A DNA stretch of 37,179 nucleotides. Source: a virus. Its lineage: Duplodnaviria; Heunggongvirae; Uroviricota; Caudoviricetes. The position numbers and the translations under genes are program-made. The stretch lies in IMG/VR virus record IMGVR_UViG_2909303794_000005. One strand, written 5' to 3'. Of the stretch, positions 3,048 through 37,179 are shown one piece after another; position 1 is the stretch's first letter, and every line of letters begins with the position of its first letter. The notes under the pieces were generated by a model. It was not told the DNA's origin and ran no database searches. It saw nothing but the letters and a program-made list of their open reading frames with translations.

Positions 3048-4223
3048 TTAGGCAGCGTCTAAGAGAGTATTAAAGTATTCATCCATTAAATCAGGACTGT
3101 CGTCATCAATACAGAAAAATTCTGGTTTATTGATGCCGTAGAAGTGAGTATGTAGCTTGAATGTATCCTCATCAAATACATCTTTCGGAGATACCCACAT
3201 ATTAGCCTCGTCCGGTTGATTGGTTAGGTAGTCATAAACCAGTTGTTGTAAGTGTGGTAACTCATCAATAGTCAGAGTTTCCGACCATCCATCCTTGAAA
3301 TCTTTGTAGGGTGCGGCGTGAGTCTTGAAGCGTTGTTTTACTTCATGCTCTAAATCGGCAGCTTTCCAACCATCCTCAAACTCATGAGTAAAGATTAAGC
3401 GGTGAGTGAAGTTGCTCTTTCTGGTTTGTTCTCTCATTCGTTCTTCTGGTTTTCGGGTAGTGATTCCAAATTTAATAAATTTGTCATCTAATAATTGAAT
3501 GTAGAAACTAGCCTTACCCTGATAAGTCCGGTTAGACAGTTGCACCAGTTGGTCTTTAATGCAAAGCGGACAAGTGAAAGAATCAGCACATCTTAAATGA
3601 GATTCCCATTCGTGGTTATGTGACTTGCAATAGGTTTTAAATTTAACATCCTTTAGGTGTGGGGTGTTTATGATGAATCCTTTGAAGATGTAAGGTGTAG
3701 TCTCGCAACGTGCATTGATGAGTGTCTCTTTGTCCTTAATAACTTCATCAAAAGTCTTGCCACTTCTTACCCGTTGGGATTTTTCAGCCATACAGATTTT
3801 ACAATCAAAATCAAAATCATCCTTGAGAGCATGTAATAGAGATGGCGTCATGATTTGATTGTGTATAGGACACAAAACACGGGCTTTTGTCTTGTTGCGC
3901 CCTTTCCATTCTCCTTGCCATCCTAGAAACTTCTTTCCCTTCTCATTACAACGAGATTCCATTTTCAACCATACAGCCTTTTCAGTCTGGAATAACTCAC
4001 CCCCGTTAGTATCTTCCAGTTTGCGTAATTTGTAGTCCTTATATTCTTGTGTGTCTAAATTGTATAACCGGAAGTAAGTATGATTACCTTTCCACGGTAG
4101 GATAAATCCACCAAATACAAAAGTAGGTTCCAGTTTAGTGATGATTCGTTGTTGGTACTCTTCCGGCGATAAACCGCGAGTTTTCTTAACAAAAGGAATT
4201 TCGGCAGCGTAAGCAAGTTTCAT
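3048..4223 (-). CDS. T5orf172/GIY-YIG-like domain protein with Cys-rich zinc-ribbon-like region
   Basis: Start chosen at internal ATG (MKLAYAAEIPF) with RBS GAGGA 7 nt upstream, not the upstream ATG of the 428 aa ORF. Motif FYIQLLDDKFIKFGITTRKPEERMREQ...DGWSETL matches the T5orf172 pattern from memory; CxxC pairs in the N-terminal half. Confidence 0.45.
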   Translation of the reverse strand: MKLAYAAEIPFVKKTRGLSPEEYQQRIITKLEPTFVFGGFILPWKGNHTYFRLYNLDTQEYKDYKLRKLEDTNGGELFQTEKAVWLKMESRCNEKGKKFLGWQGEWKGRNKTKARVLCPIHNQIMTPSLLHALKDDFDFDCKICMAEKSQRVRSGKTFDEVIKDKETLINARCETTPYIFKGFIINTPHLKDVKFKTYCKSHNHEWESHLRCADSFTCPLCIKDQLVQLSNRTYQGKASFYIQLLDDKFIKFGITTRKPEERMREQTRKSNFTHRLIFTHEFEDGWKAADLEHEVKQRFKTHAAPYKDFKDGWSETLTIDELPHLQQLVYDYLTNQPDEANMWVSPKDVFDEDTFKLHTHFYGINKPEFFCIDDDSPDLMDEYFNTLLDAA

Positions 4224-28484: not shown

Positions 28485-30392
28485 TTAGAACGATGTTACC
28501 CAACTACGGCCTCTATTTGGACGTCTGGCGATGTTTTTACGTTGTGGTCGTGTGATTGGCTTAGTTTCTTCGATTTGCTCGTTAGATTGCGATTTAGGAG
28601 CTTCTACGGGTTCTTCGACAACACGGTTTAAGCTGTCTTTCATTGCAATGAGTTTATCCCATGACATTTTTGAAAGGACGTAGCGAGAAGCCGCTGTAGC
28701 ATACACGGCGCAGTCGAGCGCCTCGTTTCGTGTCGCACCTGGATTTTTTACCCATCTCACGCCAGTAGTAGTACGCTTAACAGATTCACTTAAAAGCTGA
28801 TCGAGATAATCATCAGGAACGGTGTCTGATATTTCTAAGGCAATATGAGGATTATCTTTCAGGTTCCTAGCCAACATTTCACGAAATGCAGTTTTACCCA
28901 CGTTAACACCCAACATAAGCAATTCATGACCACCTGTGCGGGTAGGTTTAACCGGAATGATCGGAGCGTTACCAGCAGAACTACCTTTGATAGCGTGTAA
29001 GTTCTTCCACTTGCCGCAAATACGGTATCCAGCTTGAGTGAATCGACCGTTCGATGTATCAAGGAAGCTGGCGAGCATAGGAACACGATCACCCGATACA
29101 GTAGTAAATTTGGTTTTATGGAAGTTGATTAATCTATCCCATACAGGGGATTCATATCGTTCACAGTTATGATCGTAAAAGCTACGGTGATCCAGAATGT
29201 AAACCTTATCTTTCGCTACACCTAAGATGGTAGTTTCTGCGCGATCTAATTGCTGGTCAGTACCCGCACATAAGAAAATCACGTCATCAGGGATATTCTC
29301 GATAGAAACATCTGTTTTGAGTTGTTCCAGTTCATTTGCTTCTACTGCCGTGTCCTGATCGTCGTATACCTTACCTAACACGGTGTTATAAAATGATTGT
29401 AAATCAAAGGATTGCCACGCATGACTAAAATCAACCACACAAGCGCGGATACTACTGAAAGGTGAATACAGACGGCTAATCCAGAATCCTGCTACCTCAC
29501 TTTCACGGGTTGCTCTCCACTCTCCTTGTGCTACTGCCCTGATTCGTTCCCCTTCTGTCCATGCGTTCTTACAGTGGGGGCAAATATAACGAGCGGTATC
29601 AGGATCGGGTAAGTTCTTACCATCGATGTTACGCCATTCAAATTGAACGTTTTCCCACTCGATCACCTGGTGTTCCCCGCAATGAGGACACGGAACAAAA
29701 AACATACGCATATCGCTTGATAACCATTGCTGGTTAATGCTTCCCAGCTTACTGGTCGGGGTACTGGATACGACTAATCGACCTTCATCGCCAAAGGTAG
29801 TTAAACGGTTAGCAGCCAGTGCCACCGGATCACCTTCTTCTGAGGCTGTAGCAGCATCGATTTCGTCAAGCAATCCAACCTTTGCGGTCTTACCACGTAG
29901 GGTCGATGGACTGGTTAGCGATACCATGTAAAGGAAGTGATTCGTTTTTAGCTGGAGTTGGTTATTGTTGTTAACCGCATTGCGATCATTCTTGTCTGTA
30001 ACAACGTCTTTTAATGCATCACATGCTTCGATAGACGGTCGGATCTTACCAGCGAGATATTGAGACATTTCTTTAGCGGTTGATTGTCCGATAATCATAT
30101 TGCATGGATCGTTAGCCATCTGGTTAAACAGGATGCCGTTCAGGATGGTAGTCTTTCCGATCTGCGCACTGGTCATCAGAACATACTTTTTCTTATTCTC
30201 AAGGAAAGGAGCATCAATCATGCCTTTCTGGAATGACAGCAATTTAACTTTATCCCCAGCTTGAGGACCATCTACCAGCACCATATTCGCTTCGCACCAT
30301 TCCGATGGAAGGAGTTTAGGCGGTGGCGTAATATATTTGGCTGCATTTCTGAGAATCTTTTTTAATTTGGCCTTATTAGAAATCAGTTTCAT
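28485..30392 (-). CDS. terL: terminase large subunit (lambda gpA family)
   Basis: Walker [10 protein letters not shown], paired CPHCGEH...CPHCKN zinc-finger typical of GpA-type terminases, C-terminal nuclease region; RBS GAGGGT upstream. Confidence 0.9.
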
Positions 30393-31507: not shown

Positions 31508-32338
31508 TCACAGTCCGAAGACTTCCAGTGATCCAACATTCTGGCGGAGACGTTCAGCTGCTTTATTTTGAATCAGAATAGTGTTGTTCGGCTTAGGAAG
31601 ATTCAGAGTTGCTTTTTGTTCTTCTTCCAGAACACCCAATTCAACCAGCACCGGAAGCACATCAACAGTAAACTCAAGCTGGTAGTGAGCATTCATGCGG
31701 CAGAAAGACAGAGAAGAGTCATTAGCAACATACCCACACGGCTTGTTATTTTCATCATAGACGCGCTCAATGTAGCCAGCAGTACGCAAGGCCGTCAGTG
31801 CTTCTTTAACCTTCGTAGCGCCCTTTTTAGCGCCTAACAGACGTGTCATAGAATGGCTATCTACGGATTTGCGAATGTGTAGCTCAATCAGTTTTTTATT
31901 TTTGCGTTTTTCATCTAATGCCAGTTCGATCCAGTCTGTTTCTTCAAAGTGTTCATATGGATTAACCGGAACATTAGCTTTACCTTCTTTCATCAAACGC
32001 CATTCTTTAGCAATTTTGAAGCGAAGCGGTGCATCGTATCCCATAACCAGAGTATTACAGAGATCTTCATCCAGTTCATACATCGGGCGAGATTGATTAT
32101 TCTTATCAAAATATGAAGATTCTACAAAATACCCCAGCGCAAAATTGCGCCCGGCTAATTCGCTTCCTTTTTCAAGAGAATCAATCATGCGACGAAAATC
32201 ACGCATAACATCTTTATGATTCTTTCCGGTCAATTCAGCAATCTGACGGGTAGACATGGTCAGCGGTTTGGTGTTATCAACAACCAGAGACACGGAAGCA
32301 GTTTTAACAGCAGTATTCATAGTAGTAACAGTATTCAT
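31508..32338 (-). CDS. Rha-family phage regulatory protein (antirepressor-like)
   Basis: N-terminal TMSTRQIAELTGKNHKDVMRDFRRMIDSL matches the Rha-domain pattern as recalled; RBS AAGGGGA upstream. Confidence 0.7.
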   Translation of the reverse strand: MNTVTTMNTAVKTASVSLVVDNTKPLTMSTRQIAELTGKNHKDVMRDFRRMIDSLEKGSELAGRNFALGYFVESSYFDKNNQSRPMYELDEDLCNTLVMGYDAPLRFKIAKEWRLMKEGKANVPVNPYEHFEETDWIELALDEKRKNKKLIELHIRKSVDSHSMTRLLGAKKGATKVKEALTALRTAGYIERVYDENNKPCGYVANDSSLSFCRMNAHYQLEFTVDVLPVLVELGVLEEEQKATLNLPKPNNTILIQNKAAERLRQNVGSLEVFGL

Positions 32339-32427
32339 AGTATTAATTCCCCTTAAACGGTTTAATGATTTGGTCCTCCTAGTTCCGGCAGCATCACCGG
32401 AACAATTTTATTTATAATAGAAATTTA

Positions 32428-32760
32428 TTACCAATCGATTTCTACTTGGTCTTCTTCATAATAAGGAATCGCATATTCATAACGCCAGTTTTCGATGATT
32501 TCACGTTCTTCATTAGTAAGAAGGTGATTGCTAACTGGAGTCGCATTGTGATTACCAGCTTCGAATTGTTCGCGAACTTCCAGCATTGCATGAATACCAG
32601 TTAAGGACATCAGATCAAACGGAACATGCATACTACGGGAGATTGTTTCACGGGATACGCCCCAATCATTTTCTACATGGCTAGGGCTTACAGAAACGGT
32701 TTTGCCGGAGATTTTAACAGTCCAGTCATACAGGGATTTAGTGATGGTAAATTCTTTCAT
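32428..32760 (-). CDS. hypothetical protein
   Basis: RBS AAGAGGA upstream; 110 aa; first gene after the promoter/operator at 32817-32858. Confidence 0.45.
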   Translation of the reverse strand: MKEFTITKSLYDWTVKISGKTVSVSPSHVENDWGVSRETISRSMHVPFDLMSLTGIHAMLEVREQFEAGNHNATPVSNHLLTNEEREIIENWRYEYAIPYYEEDQVEIDW

Positions 32761-32816
32761 GTTACATCCTCTTTACAAATCTAGGTCAAATAGGTTCAAA
32801 GTTGTCAAGTGCGATA

Positions 32817-32845
32817 ATCATAAAAAAGTCAGAAAATTTTGTCAA
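32817..32845 (-). promoter_or_regulatory. sigma70-type promoter (minus strand)
   Basis: Minus-strand TTGACA, 17 nt spacer, TATGAT; about 55 nt upstream of the 32760 start. Confidence 0.5.
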
Positions 32846-32858
32846 TACCCCTTGACAA
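32839..32858. promoter_or_regulatory. palindromic operator-like site overlapping the -35 element
   Basis: TTGTCAA TACCCC TTGACAA, perfect 7 bp inverted repeat; more TTGAC/GTCAA half-sites at 32790-32880. Confidence 0.45.
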
Positions 32859-32880
32859 GACGCCAAAGGGTTGACCTAAC

Positions 32881-33333
32881 TTACAGCATATCTAAGCCTT
32901 CATCGTAACCGTAGAAGCCATTCTGAGAAGAGAAACAGATTGGCGCGTAGTCGTCGTCATCTTCGTCTTGTTCATCTCGTTCTGGGGCTTCCTGAGCGGG
33001 TTGTTTACCATAATCAGCCATAATCTGGTCAAGATCGGCGATCCCATAGTAAGAGCCTAAATCAACGTCATATTCACGAACATCAAACGGCAGGTCATCA
33101 CGAACAATAATTGCCGGAATGTTGTTGTATTGTTCACGACCTTCATCAGTAAAGCAGTCTACGATCACCGTAGGGCGACCATTACGTTTAAGAGCATAGA
33201 AAGCAGTTGAGAAATTGGAGTCTTCGGAATGACGAATGATGTTATAACCACGATTAGCGAAAACATGCATCATAGCCAGATTATCATCATGGTTCAGACC
33301 CAGAAGAATGAAAGGAGTTTTAGTATTGATCAT
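32881..33333 (-). CDS. hypothetical acidic protein
   Basis: RBS AGAGGA upstream; 150 aa with Asp/Glu-rich C-terminal region. Confidence 0.45.
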   Translation of the reverse strand: MINTKTPFILLGLNHDDNLAMMHVFANRGYNIIRHSEDSNFSTAFYALKRNGRPTVIVDCFTDEGREQYNNIPAIIVRDDLPFDVREYDVDLGSYYGIADLDQIMADYGKQPAQEAPERDEQDEDDDDYAPICFSSQNGFYGYDEGLDML

Positions 33334-34016
33334 AGTGGAAATCCTCTAAAAAGTGAATCAAAGTAAGTTCACTATTATTTATAACGAGAAATTTTTGTCT
33401 AATTTGAAAGGAATTGGTATTCAGTCGGCTTCGCCTCCTTCATAGATTTTGATTAAATCATCATCAAAACGAAGAAGTATCTTTAGAATATAAGAATCTT
33501 TCTTTTGGAGAAATAATAATCCGGAAGCAATTTAGCAACCGAAGGTTGCAATCCCGAAGGGATACCAATACCTTTCATGATCATTAAAGTGATCTAGAAT
33601 CATCTAGTAACCAGTTAACTACTATTATCTTCAAAGTGATTATTACTATCTTTCTAGAATCAGTTAGTAACTAGTTTAAAATCCCTTTCAAGAAAATCCT
33701 TTCAAAAGTGATTCTCGATGCCACGCAGTGGCGTCGCAGACGTTTGAGAGTGAGCGAAGCGAGCGAGCAAACTAGTTAATTCCTTCTAAGACCATCTAGT
33801 ATCATCTAGTTTAAATTAGTGTTACTAGAAGTAATTGGTTAGCGCTTCGCGCAGTCGGGCTACGCCCTCCTAATATCTTTTTGGTTATTTGTTGTTTTTG
33901 GTTTTACACATGAGCGTAGCGAATGTGTTATATAATATCTATGCACGCCCGATTCCCCGTTTTTGCCCCTCACTAAGTTAATGTTTTATAAAGAGTTTTT
34001 CTTACCAATCCTTTTC

Positions 34017-34201
34017 GGGGGCAAATTTCAGGGGCAAAAATTAGATTTTCAGGGGCAATTATTGGCATTTCAGGGGCAAAAATGAGGGGCAAAATCACCG
34101 TTTCCCAGAATTTCAGGGGCAAAAATATTGGGTTTCAGGGGCAAAAATGGGATGTGGAATCTAGGGTATTTTGGTTCAGGGGCAAAAATTCAGGGGCAAT
34201 T
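34017..34201 (+). repeat. iteron array: 9 direct copies of (TTC)AGGGGCAA(AAAT)
   Basis: GGGGCAA cores at 34018, 34031, 34052, 34073, 34086, 34116, 34138, 34179, 34193, spaced 13-41 bp; an inverted copy at 33961-33969. Confidence 0.8.
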
Positions 34202-34240
34202 TTCATAGTGTAGGGCTAGTGTAGGTTTGAAAATCCTTTG

Positions 34241-34298
34241 TTGACACTGTGTAGGATCGGTGCTACACTTGACAATTAGAGAAAAAATGTGGTATAAT
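34241..34298 (+). promoter_or_regulatory. tandem strong sigma70 promoters
   Basis: TTGACA (34241) -17- TACACT, and TTGACA (34269) -18- TGgTATAAT (extended -10, 34290-34298). Confidence 0.65.
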
Positions 34299-34662
34299 AT
34301 TTGTATTGAAAGTGAAAATTTACCGATTTTCCTTCCTATTGTTATCACCGTGTTAAATTGTTATATGTCTGTGAAGATTTGGATCTGAGAGAAAATCTTG
34401 TAACAAATCTTTACAATTCATAGCTCAATTAATGCTCACCGCTTTAGCAAAAAGTGCTATGCAATTTTCTAAATTGATTGAATAAACATCAATTTGGTTA
34501 ATTCGTGTTCTTCTCTTTAGCAATTCGTGCTGCGGTTTAACACATTTAACACGTCTGATAACATCTGAATAACATTTTAACATATCTCTGTTATAAATAC
34601 ATATATAAGAGATAAATGTGAGGGGTTGAAAAATAAAATACAATCCCCATATAAATAATAGT

Positions 34663-34683
34663 GAGCGGTTAACGCTCTTTTTT
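34663..34683 (+). terminator. weak terminator/attenuator before the 34720 gene
   Basis: GAGCG GTTAA CGCTC followed by TTTTTT, located before the AGGAGG RBS. Confidence 0.45.
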
Positions 34684-34719
34684 AAGAAATCATTAATCCA
34701 CATTGTAGGAGGATTCGAG

Positions 34720-34902
34720 ATGGCACGACCTGTTAAGTTCACTCGCGAAATCATCTTAGAAATGGCTAAACGCTACTTTGAGTTAACGCCGGGTGTGAGA
34801 ATTGAAGAGTGGTTTAAAAATGAGGGTATCGATAAATCAACCTTTCATAAACTCTTAAAGAAGTATGACATTAAAGTAAAGATTACCGCCGAGGTCTGGT
34901 AA
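34720..34902 (+). CDS. small HTH DNA-binding protein (paralogue of 31116-31343)
   Basis: Strong RBS AGGAGG 7 nt upstream; MARPVKF...NEGIDKSTFHKLLKKYDIK parallels RGRPARF...HGISIAQFYKNMKKLDIK. Confidence 0.5.
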   Translation: MARPVKFTREIILEMAKRYFELTPGVRIEEWFKNEGIDKSTFHKLLKKYDIKVKITAEVW

Positions 34903-34944
34903 TAACCTTTCACTGAGAATTATATGATGGCTTTAAAAATAAAA

Positions 34945-34978
34945 AAGCCTCCCTTGTTGCAGCAAAGGAGGCTTTTAG
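34945..34978 (+). terminator. rho-independent terminator
   Basis: AAGCCTCC ... GGAGGCTT stem followed by TTTT. Confidence 0.6.
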
Positions 34979-35021
34979 CATGAAACATTAAAACTAACAC
35001 AGAGTATTCAGGAGTATTTAT

Positions 35022-35963
35022 ATGTTATTTTCCGCTAACTTTTTCACTAACGAAGTAACCAACGCTAAAGCAGTTATCAAATTTGGCACCGAAGCAAACA
35101 AGAAGATTCAGCCGAAAGTTGTTGCTCATGTTTCCTTTGCACAGCAGAAATCCGCTTTCGCTGGCTTTAAAGCACATCGTGAAGCACTGATCGCGGCTGG
35201 CTTTGGTGTTGACGGTAAACTGCCTAACGGCATTCGTAAAGCAATCGACCGCGTTAAACCTGCTAAAGACGTTGCAGTAGACCACATCGTTACTTTTACC
35301 GTTAAGAACTCTTCTGAACTGTTCCACCTGGTTATTGCTGGTGATACTGCTATCGTTTCCGCTCCTAACATGGATTTTCAGGATACCGCTGATTGCCAGA
35401 TCACCTTCGGTCGTCGTAAAGAAGTTACCGGAAAAGCTAAACTGAACTTCACTAAATCCGGCAATCCTTACTTTGCTGTATTCTTTAACAGCCACGCTAC
35501 CGAAAAAGAAGTTGTAGAACTGGTTGCTTATGAAGGTGAAGAGAAAGAACGTATTGAATCTTGCGAAGCATTTCTGGAACTGGAAGCACAGGTGAATGCT
35601 GTTTCTCCTGTTGTAGAAGATCGCTTTGCTGCACTGGAAGCACAGATCGCAGAACTGAAAGCTGCGCTGGAAGAAAAAGACCAGATTATCGAAGCCCAGA
35701 AAGCTGAAATTGAAGAACTGAAAGCTAAAGAAGTTGCTCCGGTGGCAGTAGTTGAAAATGCGGCTGATGAGGCCGCAAATGATGAAGTAGAAGTGAAAAT
35801 CGATGTGATGCGTGATCCGATGGCTGCACTGCAATTACTTCGTTCTTTTAAGGGCAAATCTCATTTTTCTAGTGATGTAGAAGATGAGGAAGAAGAACAG
35901 AAACGCAATGCTGCAATGCTTCATGATGAAATGTACGGTACTAACTTTTCTTACTGCCAATAA
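35022..35963 (+). CDS. acidic coiled-coil protein with host-like (high-expression) codon usage
   Basis: RBS AGGAG 8 nt upstream; 313 aa; heavy use of CTG, CGT, GCT, GGT, GAA, AAA codons unlike the AT-rich surrounding genes; Ala/Glu-rich heptads and acidic C-terminus. Confidence 0.6.
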   Translation: MLFSANFFTNEVTNAKAVIKFGTEANKKIQPKVVAHVSFAQQKSAFAGFKAHREALIAAGFGVDGKLPNGIRKAIDRVKPAKDVAVDHIVTFTVKNSSELFHLVIAGDTAIVSAPNMDFQDTADCQITFGRRKEVTGKAKLNFTKSGNPYFAVFFNSHATEKEVVELVAYEGEEKERIESCEAFLELEAQVNAVSPVVEDRFAALEAQIAELKAALEEKDQIIEAQKAEIEELKAKEVAPVAVVENAADEAANDEVEVKIDVMRDPMAALQLLRSFKGKSHFSSDVEDEEEEQKRNAAMLHDEMYGTNFSYCQ

Positions 35964-35966
35964 AAA

Positions 35967-35986
35967 AGGGACTCCGAAGAGTCCCT
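35967..35986. terminator. bidirectional terminator hairpin
   Basis: AGGGACTC CGAA GAGTCCCT, preceded by an A-run and followed by T-rich sequence. Confidence 0.55.
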
Positions 35987-36060
35987 AGTAAGTTTAGGTT
36001 AGGTTGCACAACAAAGATGAGGTTATAATGAACATAATGCTACATTATCTAGTAAAGCCA

Positions 36061-36087
36061 GAAAAATAACCGCCCCTTTCGAGGCGG
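36061..36087 (-). terminator. rho-independent terminator (minus strand)
   Basis: Minus-strand CCGCCUC GAAA GGGGCGG (GNRA loop) followed by TTATTTTTC. Confidence 0.55.
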
Positions 36088-36245
36088 GAGGATTAATACT
36101 CAATCTATACTTGTTATGTTTTTATGTTGTATAGTCACTGACTATGAAAACACTGTACTGAATGTGTTTTATGGCTTTTAATCGGGAACTCTCTTTCGAA
36201 AATTCCCTGTTAAAACCACATAAGGAGAAATGGCAGATTACAATA

Positions 36246-36530
36246 TTATTTAGTCTGTTTGAAAACAAACGTTAAAAATTCGATTAAGCAATATACCCAG
36301 CATACAGTAAGCAGTAGATGCATAGAAATAGCCGGATGGAAGTTAAAAAGTGTCATACTAACTAGACCAACAATATAAGAAATCCCTTCGACAATTAAAG
36401 CTAGACTAGAAAATGCAACAAACGCACCTAAGAATAATTCAGCACGTTCTCGATTTTCGGTTCCGAGTTTATAAGCAGAAATAACAGCCAGAATAGTAAT
36501 GATGACAGCATAGGTAATAAAAGTAGCCAT
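36246..36530 (-). CDS. small membrane protein with three predicted transmembrane helices
   Basis: RBS AAGAGGA upstream; 94 aa with three hydrophobic stretches of about 20 residues. Confidence 0.45.
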   Translation of the reverse strand: MATFITYAVIITILAVISAYKLGTENRERAELFLGAFVAFSSLALIVEGISYIVGLVSMTLFNFHPAISMHLLLTVCWVYCLIEFLTFVFKQTK

Positions 36531-36556
36531 AGTTTTATATCCTCTTAAAAGTTAAG

Positions 36557-36575
36557 CGGGGGAGAACATCCCCCG
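36557..36575 (-). terminator. GC-rich hairpin after terminase-small-like gene
   Basis: CGGGGGA GAACA TCCCCCG, same hairpin family as 19111-19129. Confidence 0.4.
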
Positions 36576-36624
36576 TAGACGTTGACCCGTTCAACATCTT
36601 TCATACATTTATTTATAACGCGTT

Positions 36625-37179
36625 TTAAGACACATCAAATTCATCGTCTTCTTCTGGTTCTTGTTCTTCCGGTTCATCCATTAATGGTAATTCTTCTTCC
36701 TCGTCTTCTCCCAAATCTGCATTTTCGAACAAGTCCCCTACTTCATTTAAACGACGCTCGATGATCTCCCTTAGCTTATTCTTCAATGTTTTCTGATCAG
36801 TGGCAGATTCAAGAATTTCTAAAGCGTCGATTGTGGCGATCTGCAAAATAGTCTGTTTCACCTTCCCGCAATATTCCGCTAGTTCCTGTTCTACATAACC
36901 GACCGGAATCAGGAGATTCATTGCTTCCTGGTTCTCTCGTTCGGCTGCATCCGCTAATGCTCTCTCACGGCGTAATTTCTCTACGTCGATTTGTTCCTTG
37001 ACAGTAGTTTCTTTAAGCGGGTTGATAATATTTTTCAAGACCCATTCTGTTCCTTCTTTGGCTGGCACGCGTCGTGTATTGGTATTAAATGGCATTCCTC
37101 GTTCTTGCCATTTCTTAGCGGCGTTGATTGTATAGCCGTATAAACGGGAAATTTCTGTAAGGGTTAATTCTTCTTTCAT
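36625..37179 (-). CDS. terminase small subunit-like protein (Nu1-type HTH); start at or beyond window edge
   Basis: N-terminal LTLTEISRLYGYTINAAKKWQERGMPF then EKLRRERA resembles lambda Nu1 (winged HTH, W.E.GMP) as recalled; acidic C-terminal tail. Confidence 0.55.
   Translation of the reverse strand: MKEELTLTEISRLYGYTINAAKKWQERGMPFNTNTRRVPAKEGTEWVLKNIINPLKETTVKEQIDVEKLRRERALADAAERENQEAMNLLIPVGYVEQELAEYCGKVKQTILQIATIDALEILESATDQKTLKNKLREIIERRLNEVGDLFENADLGEDEEEELPLMDEPEEQEPEEDDEFDVS

Follow-up and report, generated by a model that had tools for sequence, protein, structure and literature searches.

The window analysed here is the virus record IMGVR_UViG_2909303794_000005 of IMG/VR, a stretch of 37,179 nucleotides (nt) assigned to the Caudoviricetes, and the element in question is the interval between positions 34299 and 34719, which runs from a strong predicted promoter to the first gene of a rightward operon. 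The interval carries no conserved open reading frame (ORF), ends in a hairpin followed by a T-run, and contains two boxes that match the binding-site consensus of the host activators MarA, SoxS and Rob as well as a direct repeat of T1-like phages. These features, the upstream promoters and the genes for a 60-aa helix-turn-helix (HTH) protein and a 313-aa protein that follow are collected in Table 1.

Table 1. Features of the interval and its surroundings, in window coordinates (PWM, position weight matrix).
Feature	Position	Strand	Basis or remarks
Three GTGTAGG operator-like repeats	34208-34255 (34208-34214, 34219-34225, 34249-34255)	+	read from sequence; flank or overlap the promoters
Upstream promoter-like site, TTGACA-17-TACACT	34241-34269	+	10/12 matches; TG before -10; 16.5 bits
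Main sigma-70 promoter, TTGACA-18-TGgTATAAT	34269-34298	+	12/12 matches; 18.3 bits (PWM scan); predicted start ~34305
Non-coding 5' leader, ~415 nt, 31% G+C	34299-34719	+	no conserved ORF; fold z ~-6; no Rfam family
Hairpin A, 12-bp stem	34370-34415	+	inverted repeat I15; -16.1 kcal/mol, z = -4.2
Box 1, minus strand ATAGCACTTTTTGCTAAAGC, perfect marbox 15-mer 34443-34457, TTT class	34441-34460	-	28.2 bits, T1-like PWM
Hairpin B, between the two boxes	34469-34497	+	inverted repeat I6; fold
Box 2, minus strand GCAGCACGAATTGCTAAAGA, perfect marbox 15-mer 34516-34530	34514-34533	-	19.5 bits, T1-like PWM
TTAACA/TAACAT repeats forming three overlapping weak promoter-like sites	34537-34583	+	repeat D6; 8.8-11.0 bits; type A only
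Hairpin C, including TTATAAATACA (34591-34601)	34583-34614	+	inverted repeat I16; -9.7 kcal/mol, z = -4.1
Hairpin D, GGGGTTG...CAATCCCC	34618-34648	+	-11 kcal/mol; repeat D7
Intrinsic terminator t2, GAGCG-GTTAA-CGCTC + T6	34663-34683	+	5-bp G+C-rich stem, loop 5; 42 nt before ATG
Conserved TTAATCCACA, then Shine-Dalgarno AGGAGG (34707-34712) and ATG (34720)	34693-34722	+	sequence; conservation
60-aa HTH gene, first of operon	34720-34902	+	weak Pfam HTH_Tnp_1 match
Bidirectional terminator, 14-bp stem	34943-34976	.	-18.7 kcal/mol; conserved in all types
313-aa gene	35022-35963	+	Fop (frequency of optimal codons) 0.76, top of window; no family, fold or defence match

The window derives from an uncharacterized temperate phage, the nearest cultured relative of its large terminase being just 45% identical. 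Of 5426 complete E. coli genomes, 50 have its part from 33900 to 35100 on the chromosome. The copy in NZ_CP098223 is 98.9% identical; it belongs to a prophage of ~36 kb that is inserted in ycdX, beside ghrA, and it is ~2.5 kb away from the right end of that prophage. The prophage is integrated in ycdX of E. coli, Salmonella and Edwardsiella, and among the homologue loci that we fetched, the insertions with a readable host flank are again in this PHP-domain gene. The same part of the window has no DNA match among 50,697 INPHARED phage records and 72,556 PLSDB plasmids (megablast and blastn), a protein scan of the GTDB bacterial representatives returned no relative, and our literature search found nothing on this prophage. 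The gene content includes a large serine recombinase, a GIY-YIG nuclease, a DEAD-box helicase, siphovirus-type structural genes, a gpA-type large terminase, a Rha-family regulator and, at the very end of the prophage, a Nu1-like protein; no CI-type repressor is recognizable among the prophage genes.

The 60-aa HTH protein has 19 homologues (63-98% identity) in prophages of E. coli, Salmonella and Edwardsiella. Our comparison set consisted of the fetched homologue loci and of IMG/VR loci found via the 313-aa protein and a DNA pattern. It provided 42 distinct upstream regions in about ten leader types, the window representing type A, and 28 distinct sequences of the last 85 nt before the ATG for comparison of the terminator; ORFs were checked in 18 close variants that are 94% identical.

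Transcription of the interval is predicted to begin at the extended -10 promoter that an earlier note on this DNA had placed at 34269-34298, about 415 nt ahead of the HTH ORF. This promoter matches the sigma-70 consensus at every position, has a TG one base 5' of its -10 hexamer, and is the top promoter-like site of its 5-kb neighbourhood (32000-37179); the second promoter-like site lies 28 bp 5' of it. All 42 upstream regions contain one near-consensus sigma-70 promoter, scoring 11.1-18.3 bits and located 192-449 nt before the HTH ATG, and the GTGTAGG heptamer, direct or inverted (CCTACAC), also flanks the promoter in other leader types.

No ORF between ~34305 and the ATG at 34720 is preceded by a Shine-Dalgarno sequence, and PGAP annotates nothing in the interval in 26 complete E. 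coli genomes. A small protein encoded here would have to come from one of several plus-strand ORFs of 10-21 codons or from a 109-aa ORF on the minus strand (34425-34754), and the existence of these ORFs is what speaks for such a product. A Shine-Dalgarno sequence is missing from every candidate. Among the 18 close variants, each plus-strand ORF of 10 aa or longer is disrupted in at least one, and the 109-aa ORF survives in just seven; two short ORFs on the minus strand, of 22 and 15 aa, are kept in 18 of 18 but likewise lack a Shine-Dalgarno sequence. With no family match, and no candidate that recurs in the other leader types, we give a small protein almost no credence. The description of the interval in the earlier note, as holding only tiny ORFs, agrees with these results, and no conserved ORF that could explain the region was found in the leader.

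The interval ends in the stem and T6 that had been noticed directly before the AGGAGG ribosome-binding site, and this hairpin, here called t2, has an energy of -8.3 kcal/mol with its flanks (z = -3.4). A hairpin with a T-run is present in 28 of 28 distinct sequences, where it ends 39-43 nt before the ATG. Seven versions of the stem were found, including GAGCG/CGCTC, AGAGC/GCTCT, AGAGCG/CGCTCT and wobble-paired forms with GAGTG and GAGGGC, and the Edwardsiella loci have an entirely different stem, GCCGTC/GACGGC, while the loops vary freely; a stem kept while its sequence changes, with loops under no such restraint, is what a functional RNA hairpin would be expected to show. The type II leaders, 19 distinct sequences in alignment A1, contain an extra hairpin followed by T5 some 85-130 nt after the start, with two compensatory changes. 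Another hairpin considered for the type II leaders, located after the box, is unsupported, as one stem position reads A, C, T or G against an invariant partner.

Beyond t2, the operon is interrupted again by the bidirectional terminator between the HTH gene and the 313-aa gene, and no promoter was found between these two genes in nine leader types. The claim that the gene at 35022 is codon-optimized holds well, its Fop of 0.76 exceeding those of the tail tube gene (0.73), the capsid gene (0.72) and the HTH gene (0.46). A gene so highly codon-adapted and without a promoter before it would have to be expressed through two terminators. The part of the earlier interpretation that saw in the interval a regulated leader for the HTH gene and the 35022 gene is therefore supported by comparison, through the promoter 192-449 nt upstream throughout, the presence of t2 in every sequence compared and the lack of a promoter between the genes; the invariant boxes at 34441-34460 and 34514-34533, described below, had been missed.

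Searches of the downstream proteins against Pfam, PHROGs, PADLOC and PDB sequences gave nothing usable, and neither did a single-sequence AlphaFold model (predicted local distance difference test score, pLDDT, 46). In the 313-aa protein, a long coiled coil is predicted at about residues 180-236, and the C-terminal part is acidic. Between the two genes, a 19-codon ORF, MMALKIKKPPLLQQRRLLA, is located at 34924-34983 on the plus strand, beginning 19 nt past the HTH stop codons and spanning the two arms of the terminator with the 14-bp stem. Most leader types conserve its start, ATGGCTTTAAAAA, together with an upstream GAGAA, and a ribosome translating through the hairpin could link read-through into the 313-aa gene with translation.

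The leader RNA is predicted to fold at -108.4 kcal/mol, compared with -76.5 +/- 5.4 kcal/mol for dinucleotide shuffles, and all ten leader types fold better than their shuffles (z -2.3 to -6.5). In nine of the ten, the sense strand is more stable than the antisense strand, which points to structure at the RNA level. The AT-richness and local hairpins that had been reported for the interval are evident in its 31% G+C and in hairpins A-D. The 5' arm of hairpin D is a diverged copy of an operator-like motif, GTGTAGGtTTGAAAA, a module found at other positions in other types, in which ATAAATA is also nearly invariant 6-10 nt before the terminator. The structure and covariation analysis that had been suggested thus gave a divided answer: the fold exceeds that of shuffles and the terminator stems are compensatory, but no covarying global fold is seen in the leader alignments.

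The leader is at the same time the most mosaic segment of the locus. Type A is common to some loci at >92% identity; other loci have, in place of its promoter, its leader and part of the HTH gene, a sequence of about the same length that cannot be aligned with it. Searched against Rfam at a permissive threshold (E up to 10), the region 33500-35200 gave no leader family and only terminator look-alikes at ~34943-34976; eight related loci gave no match at E up to 0.01, and no tRNAs were found. The mosaic body, the lack of an Rfam match and the lack of a covarying global fold weaken the proposal, also made in the earlier note, of an abundant early non-coding RNA. Because the plan of promoter, leader and terminator is kept while the body of the leader is mosaic, the interval is best read as a gated leader and not as a single conserved non-coding RNA.

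A related possibility is that the product is the ~375-nt terminated transcript itself, or a piece processed from it, acting in trans as a regulatory or immunity RNA whose mosaic bodies would correspond to immunity specificities. P4 CI, P1/P7 c4 and N15 CA are immunity RNAs that come from operon leaders (Rfam C4, RF01695), and the locus recalls them in several respects: a strong promoter and a long structured leader-derived RNA, termination directly before the first gene, a variable locus whose most mosaic part is the leader, and no obvious CI-type repressor gene. The early terminator of type II leaders, with its compensatory changes, fits as well, and the A/U-rich UAUAAAUA, the G+C hairpin and the U-tail have a likeness to the 3' module of Hfq-binding small RNAs. 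Unlike the C4-type RNAs, however, the leader has no Rfam match even at E up to 10 and no internal complementary target elements, and its hairpin loops vary without correlated changes elsewhere. Nor is there a conserved seed-like RNA segment except the box, whose boundaries are those of a DNA-binding site; leader-to-ribosome-binding-site duplexes are no better than those of shuffles (z -1.8 to +1.1), and the GTGTAGG repeats suggest control of the promoter by a protein. We consider such an RNA unlikely.

Two further RNA-level candidates were rejected. Sequestration of the Shine-Dalgarno sequence by CCUUCCUAU/GUAGGAGG pairing appears in the minimum-energy fold and is not kept in close variants. 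For nut-type antitermination elements we compared the leader with the boxA consensus of NusB/NusE, which has the core GCUCUUUA, where the window reads UCUCUUUAGCAA; in CUCUUUAGCAA the two bases before CUUUAGC vary among the variants (CU, CG, GU, AU), the 5' part of the boxA-like CUCUUUA is not conserved, and conservation extends 3' over AAUUCGUGCU.

The region upstream raises the question of whether the interval matters mainly as DNA, as part of a 1.4-kb control region such as a replication origin, a cos or terminase packaging site or a looping operator field, with transcription incidental. Positions 33334-34719 are gene-free between a leftward 150-aa gene and the HTH gene, and a gap of ~1.2-1.6 kb precedes the HTH gene in all 18 fetched homologous loci (which in the Edwardsiella loci includes short called genes). 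About ten copies of TCAGGGGCAAAAAT (core GGGGCAA) are arrayed just 5' of the promoters, between 33960 and 34200, at irregular spacings of 13-55 bp and with one inverted copy at 33960-33972; the array is also present in other leader types (L010, L020, L021) and could represent iterons, a terminase-binding field or an operator field. The region is A+T-rich and contains, besides the GTGTAGG repeats and the two marbox-type sites, a set of TTAACA repeats spaced by ~10 bp, of which inverted copies are found at a distance of 200 bp. It is enclosed by the terminase genes: the Nu1-like small terminase homologue is encoded at the extreme right end (36625-37179, minus strand) and the gpA-type large terminase at 28485-30392 (minus strand), 6 kb apart and with the whole control region and rightward operon between them, an unusual layout for a cos-type packaging module. 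Against a role confined to DNA, every variant has a strong predicted promoter directed into the interval, and both the terminator structure, kept through sequence change, and the better fold of the sense strand in nine of ten types argue for constraint on the RNA. The GC skew tracks gene orientation with no origin-like switch, and no replication initiator gene was recognized. We regard this alternative as decidedly improbable.

Some other elements of the control region differ between leader types. The operator-like repeats include TCAGGGGCAA in addition to GTGTAGG. Most non-A types have the -35 hexamer within a palindrome, TTGACAnnnGTCAA, in a shared promoter module (...GTCAAGAACTTTTTTATAAT) at L010:5335-5363 and at equivalent positions in L020, L023, L026, L027 and L030; the palindrome, which the window promoter does not have, is likely an operator over the -35 hexamer in these types. 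In the Salmonella leader types C and D, a perfect sigma-54-type promoter (TGGCACG-N4-TTGCA/T) is located ~50 nt 5' of the sigma-70 promoter (L030 at ~3645-3660; L020 and L021 at ~335-345 nt before the HTH ATG); the window does not have it. A sigma-54 reading of GCACGAATTGC was rejected, its spacing being two bases too short.

Within the mosaic leaders, one short element is constant. The core of box 2 is the 17-mer CTTTAGCAATTCGTGCT (34515-34531), of which a second, diverged copy is found at 34443-34459. It is the sole sequence common to otherwise unalignable leaders, it does not vary in alignments with overall identities of 86% and 94%, and the box occurs once or twice in 38 of the 42 leaders in a fixed orientation (57 reverse, 0 forward). 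Both boxes in the window are exact minus-strand matches to the marbox consensus gcannwwntgnnaaa, which was derived from chromatin immunoprecipitation (PMC12052159), and both also fit the marbox form TTT-7X-CGTG/AGTG (PMC8811837), box 2 as TTT-7X-CGTG. They are the only exact consensus matches in the 37-kb window and lie 73 bp apart in the same orientation. The sequence of the marRAB promoter was verified by 100% identity upstream of marR in 5416 of the 5426 genomes, and its marbox, GATTTAGCAAAACGTGGCAT, is identical to box 1 at 16 of 20 positions and has the same orientation relative to transcription. These matches suggest that MarA, SoxS or Rob may bind the boxes.

The same site connects the prophages to T1-like phages. 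Of the 82 IMG/VR stretches with the exact 17-mer, 29 are from the ycdX prophage family; most of the others are on ~40-52 kb contigs, two of which, when checked, proved identical to Rogue1/AHS24-like and Sd1/Rtp-like Drexlerviridae. By comparison, the GTDB representatives of bacterial species, 596 Gb in total, have 66 occurrences of the 17-mer, in unrelated taxa, against ~69 expected by chance by our own arithmetic. The T1-like loci (among our loci L036-L117, for example L046, L059, L071, L103 and L108; 477 kb) contain 171 exact marbox matches where, by the same kind of arithmetic, ~4 are expected. Nearly all of these share one arrangement, aATAGCAC(GAA/TTT)TTG(C/T)TAAA followed after 20 nt by a -10-like hexamer, a ribosome-binding site and a start codon, with the hexamer at exactly 20 nt in 75 of the 95 T1-like sites from which we built the T1-repeat PWM. 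This places the centre of the box near -41 in forward orientation, which is the class II geometry described for micF (PMC8811837). Most operons of T1-like phages have the repeat in front of them. Under the PWM, the next best site in the window after the two boxes scores 2.2 bits, and the window contains both central variants of the repeat, GAA and TTT. The TLS genome paper described the repeat as a 21-nt direct repeat, aaATAGCACnnnTTGnTAAAA, in TLS, T1, Rtp and Rogue1, and left open whether it is a stoperator, an enhancer site or an UP element, without mention of marboxes (PMC11447400). We found no paper linking the two, and the likeness of the T1 repeat to the MarA/SoxS/Rob box appears to be previously unnoted.

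The prophage boxes share their sequence with the T1-like repeat, including both central classes, but not its setting: the T1-like repeats run forward, 20 nt before a -10 hexamer, whereas the boxes in the leader are inverted and without such a hexamer. A T1-type promoter on the minus strand was accordingly rejected, box 1 being followed at 20 nt only by a poor TATGAA and box 2 by no -10 sequence. An inverted box inside a transcribed leader is nevertheless not unique to the prophage, given that one copy of the repeat is inverted in T1-like phages, where it lies 3 nt past an extended -10 promoter, TGnTACAAT, at the start of the leader of the tail-fibre gene and with a terminator upstream (L054:3700-3790, minus strand; also L051, L061 and L092). 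A single trans-acting factor could read the same 17-21-nt site in these two unrelated coliphage groups, although we put the odds of this low.

Alternatively, the boxes might be aimed at T1-like phages, sensing or competing for the factor that drives their transcription, with the downstream genes acting in exclusion or escape. The concentration of the 17-mer in these two IMG/VR phage groups when bacterial genomes carry it only at the chance rate, the presence of both central variants in the window, and a 313-aa gene built for very high expression would all agree with such a function. One or two sites cannot titrate an abundant factor, however; no T1-type -10 sequence is found at 20 nt, the poor TATGAA that follows box 1 excepted, four of the 42 leaders have no box, and the downstream proteins match no defence family. 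As shared use of one host factor is a simpler account of the identity, we hold a function directed at T1-like phages to be very improbable.

In class I promoters, the box is in reverse orientation and centred at -56 to -85 from the start (PMC12052159). The boxes in the leader resemble those of the class I promoters marRAB and acrAB in reading TTT-7X-CGTG toward the genes, in the "backward" orientation; they differ in lying ~140 and ~215 nt downstream of a strong promoter, inside the transcribed leader, and in that a properly spaced core promoter is only weakly predicted in type A and not at all in other types. The weak type A sites (TTAACA-16-TGaTAACAT, TTAACA-18-TAACAT and CTGATA-17-TAACAT) have predicted starts at ~34571, 34582 and 34590, which place the centre of box 2 at -48, -59 and -67, the last two being inside the class I range; their role as promoters is speculative. 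An invariant TTTATAAATA would be in helical phase with the box, ~72 nt from its centre in other types and ~82 nt in the window, but it lacks a properly spaced -35 and is also found in box-less leaders. Class I activation is thus possible, with an orientation-dependent effect of the boxes on the elongating polymerase as an alternative that may apply. No class I promoter was found whose distance from the box is the same in every type, and the box as an arm of an RNA hairpin with the upstream ACGAAUUG was rejected, changes in the partner arm being uncompensated. As a separate observation, the start of the HTH gene, ATGGCACGACCTGTTAAG (34718-34740, plus strand), is weakly like a forward box, being identical to the T1 repeat at 13 of 18 positions and scoring -1.8 bits in the window and 1.0-3.2 bits in L020 and L030; it is also the preferred, non-significant pairing partner of the leader box in RNA duplex predictions.

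Taken as a whole, the interval is, with a probability of roughly 0.5, a terminator-gated regulatory leader of the rightward early operon; for the particular role of the boxes our confidence is lower. From sequence comparison we infer transcription, termination, the need for read-through and a factor that binds the boxes to some effect. Transcription would start near 34305, from the extended -10 promoter flanked by GTGTAGG operator-like repeats, and the leader RNA would form local hairpins one after another. A substantial fraction of transcripts would stop at 34663-34683, giving an RNA of ~375-380 nt, such that the HTH gene would be reached solely by read-through of t2 and the 313-aa gene would additionally need read-through of the stronger terminator at 34943-34976. 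The leader would in this way constitute a termination checkpoint on the operon, by attenuation or antitermination. At the boxes, a stress activator of the host, or else the factor, of whatever kind, that reads the T1 repeat, may modulate the transcription that reaches the genes, either by activating the weak internal TTAACA-N16-18-TAACAT promoters or by interfering with the elongating polymerase.

Several points weigh against this proposal. The t2 stem is short (5-7 bp, -5 to -10 kcal/mol), and termination there may for that reason be partial or weak. No antiterminator protein or RNA element was found in our checks of Rfam, of conserved competing helices and of complementarity between leader and ribosome-binding site. 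Four of the 42 leaders have no box and still have a promoter and a long leader, and the three box-less types examined keep the terminator; the box would therefore be accessory to the basic plan. Two consensus matches in a window of this size are not significant alone (0.62 expected; two or more in 12 of 100 shuffles), and the case for the boxes rests instead on their 73-bp proximity, their shared orientation and the coincidence of their boundaries with the block of invariance. Finally, no promoter was found at a consistent distance 3' of the box across leader types, which leaves class I activation weakly supported and for the window's type only. The sequence-level observation of the earlier note, a promoter, an ORF-free interval and a hairpin with T6, is confirmed.

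The arrangement resembles leader terminators in general and the PR'-tR' unit of lambda (6S RNA, Q antitermination), in which a very strong promoter is likewise followed by a non-coding leader and an intrinsic terminator, with the genes expressed via read-through only. Unlike lambda, the prophage has no recognized Q-like gene or qut-type site, its leader is 2-3 times longer and mosaic, a second terminator lies inside the operon, and the genes that would be gated are two or three early-looking genes and not late genes. The stoperators of mycobacteriophage L5 are comparable as asymmetric sites for protein binding inside transcribed regions, all in one orientation relative to transcription; they differ from the boxes in that the prophages have one or two sites per phage, the binder would likely be a host activator and not a phage repressor, and a roadblock effect is putative.

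Terminator-gated leaders are ordinary in phage regulation, and on that basis alone the interval would be routine: it appears to be a known kind of device in a new, unstudied phage family, with the unusual addition of one or two host-activator-type boxes in common with T1-like phages. That family is widespread, the exact 313-aa protein being found on at least 1000 E. coli contigs, and as it has no recognizable repressor, the control region is the obvious place to seek a lysis-lysogeny switch. The shared site also offers a simple, testable answer to the open question of T1-like transcription. If one factor does read it in both groups and is the Rob, MarA or SoxS protein of the host, most promoters of T1-like phages would be driven via a host stress-regulon activator, and their direct repeats would be explained as class II marbox promoters centred near -41. 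For the ycdX prophages, the boxes in their fixed orientation suggest a host stress input to the early genes; stress signals such as bile salts, oxidants and antibiotics would then be wired into the leader of the early operon, which would make prophage gene expression responsive to a cue independent of SOS or let the prophage cross-talk with T1-like phages that superinfect.

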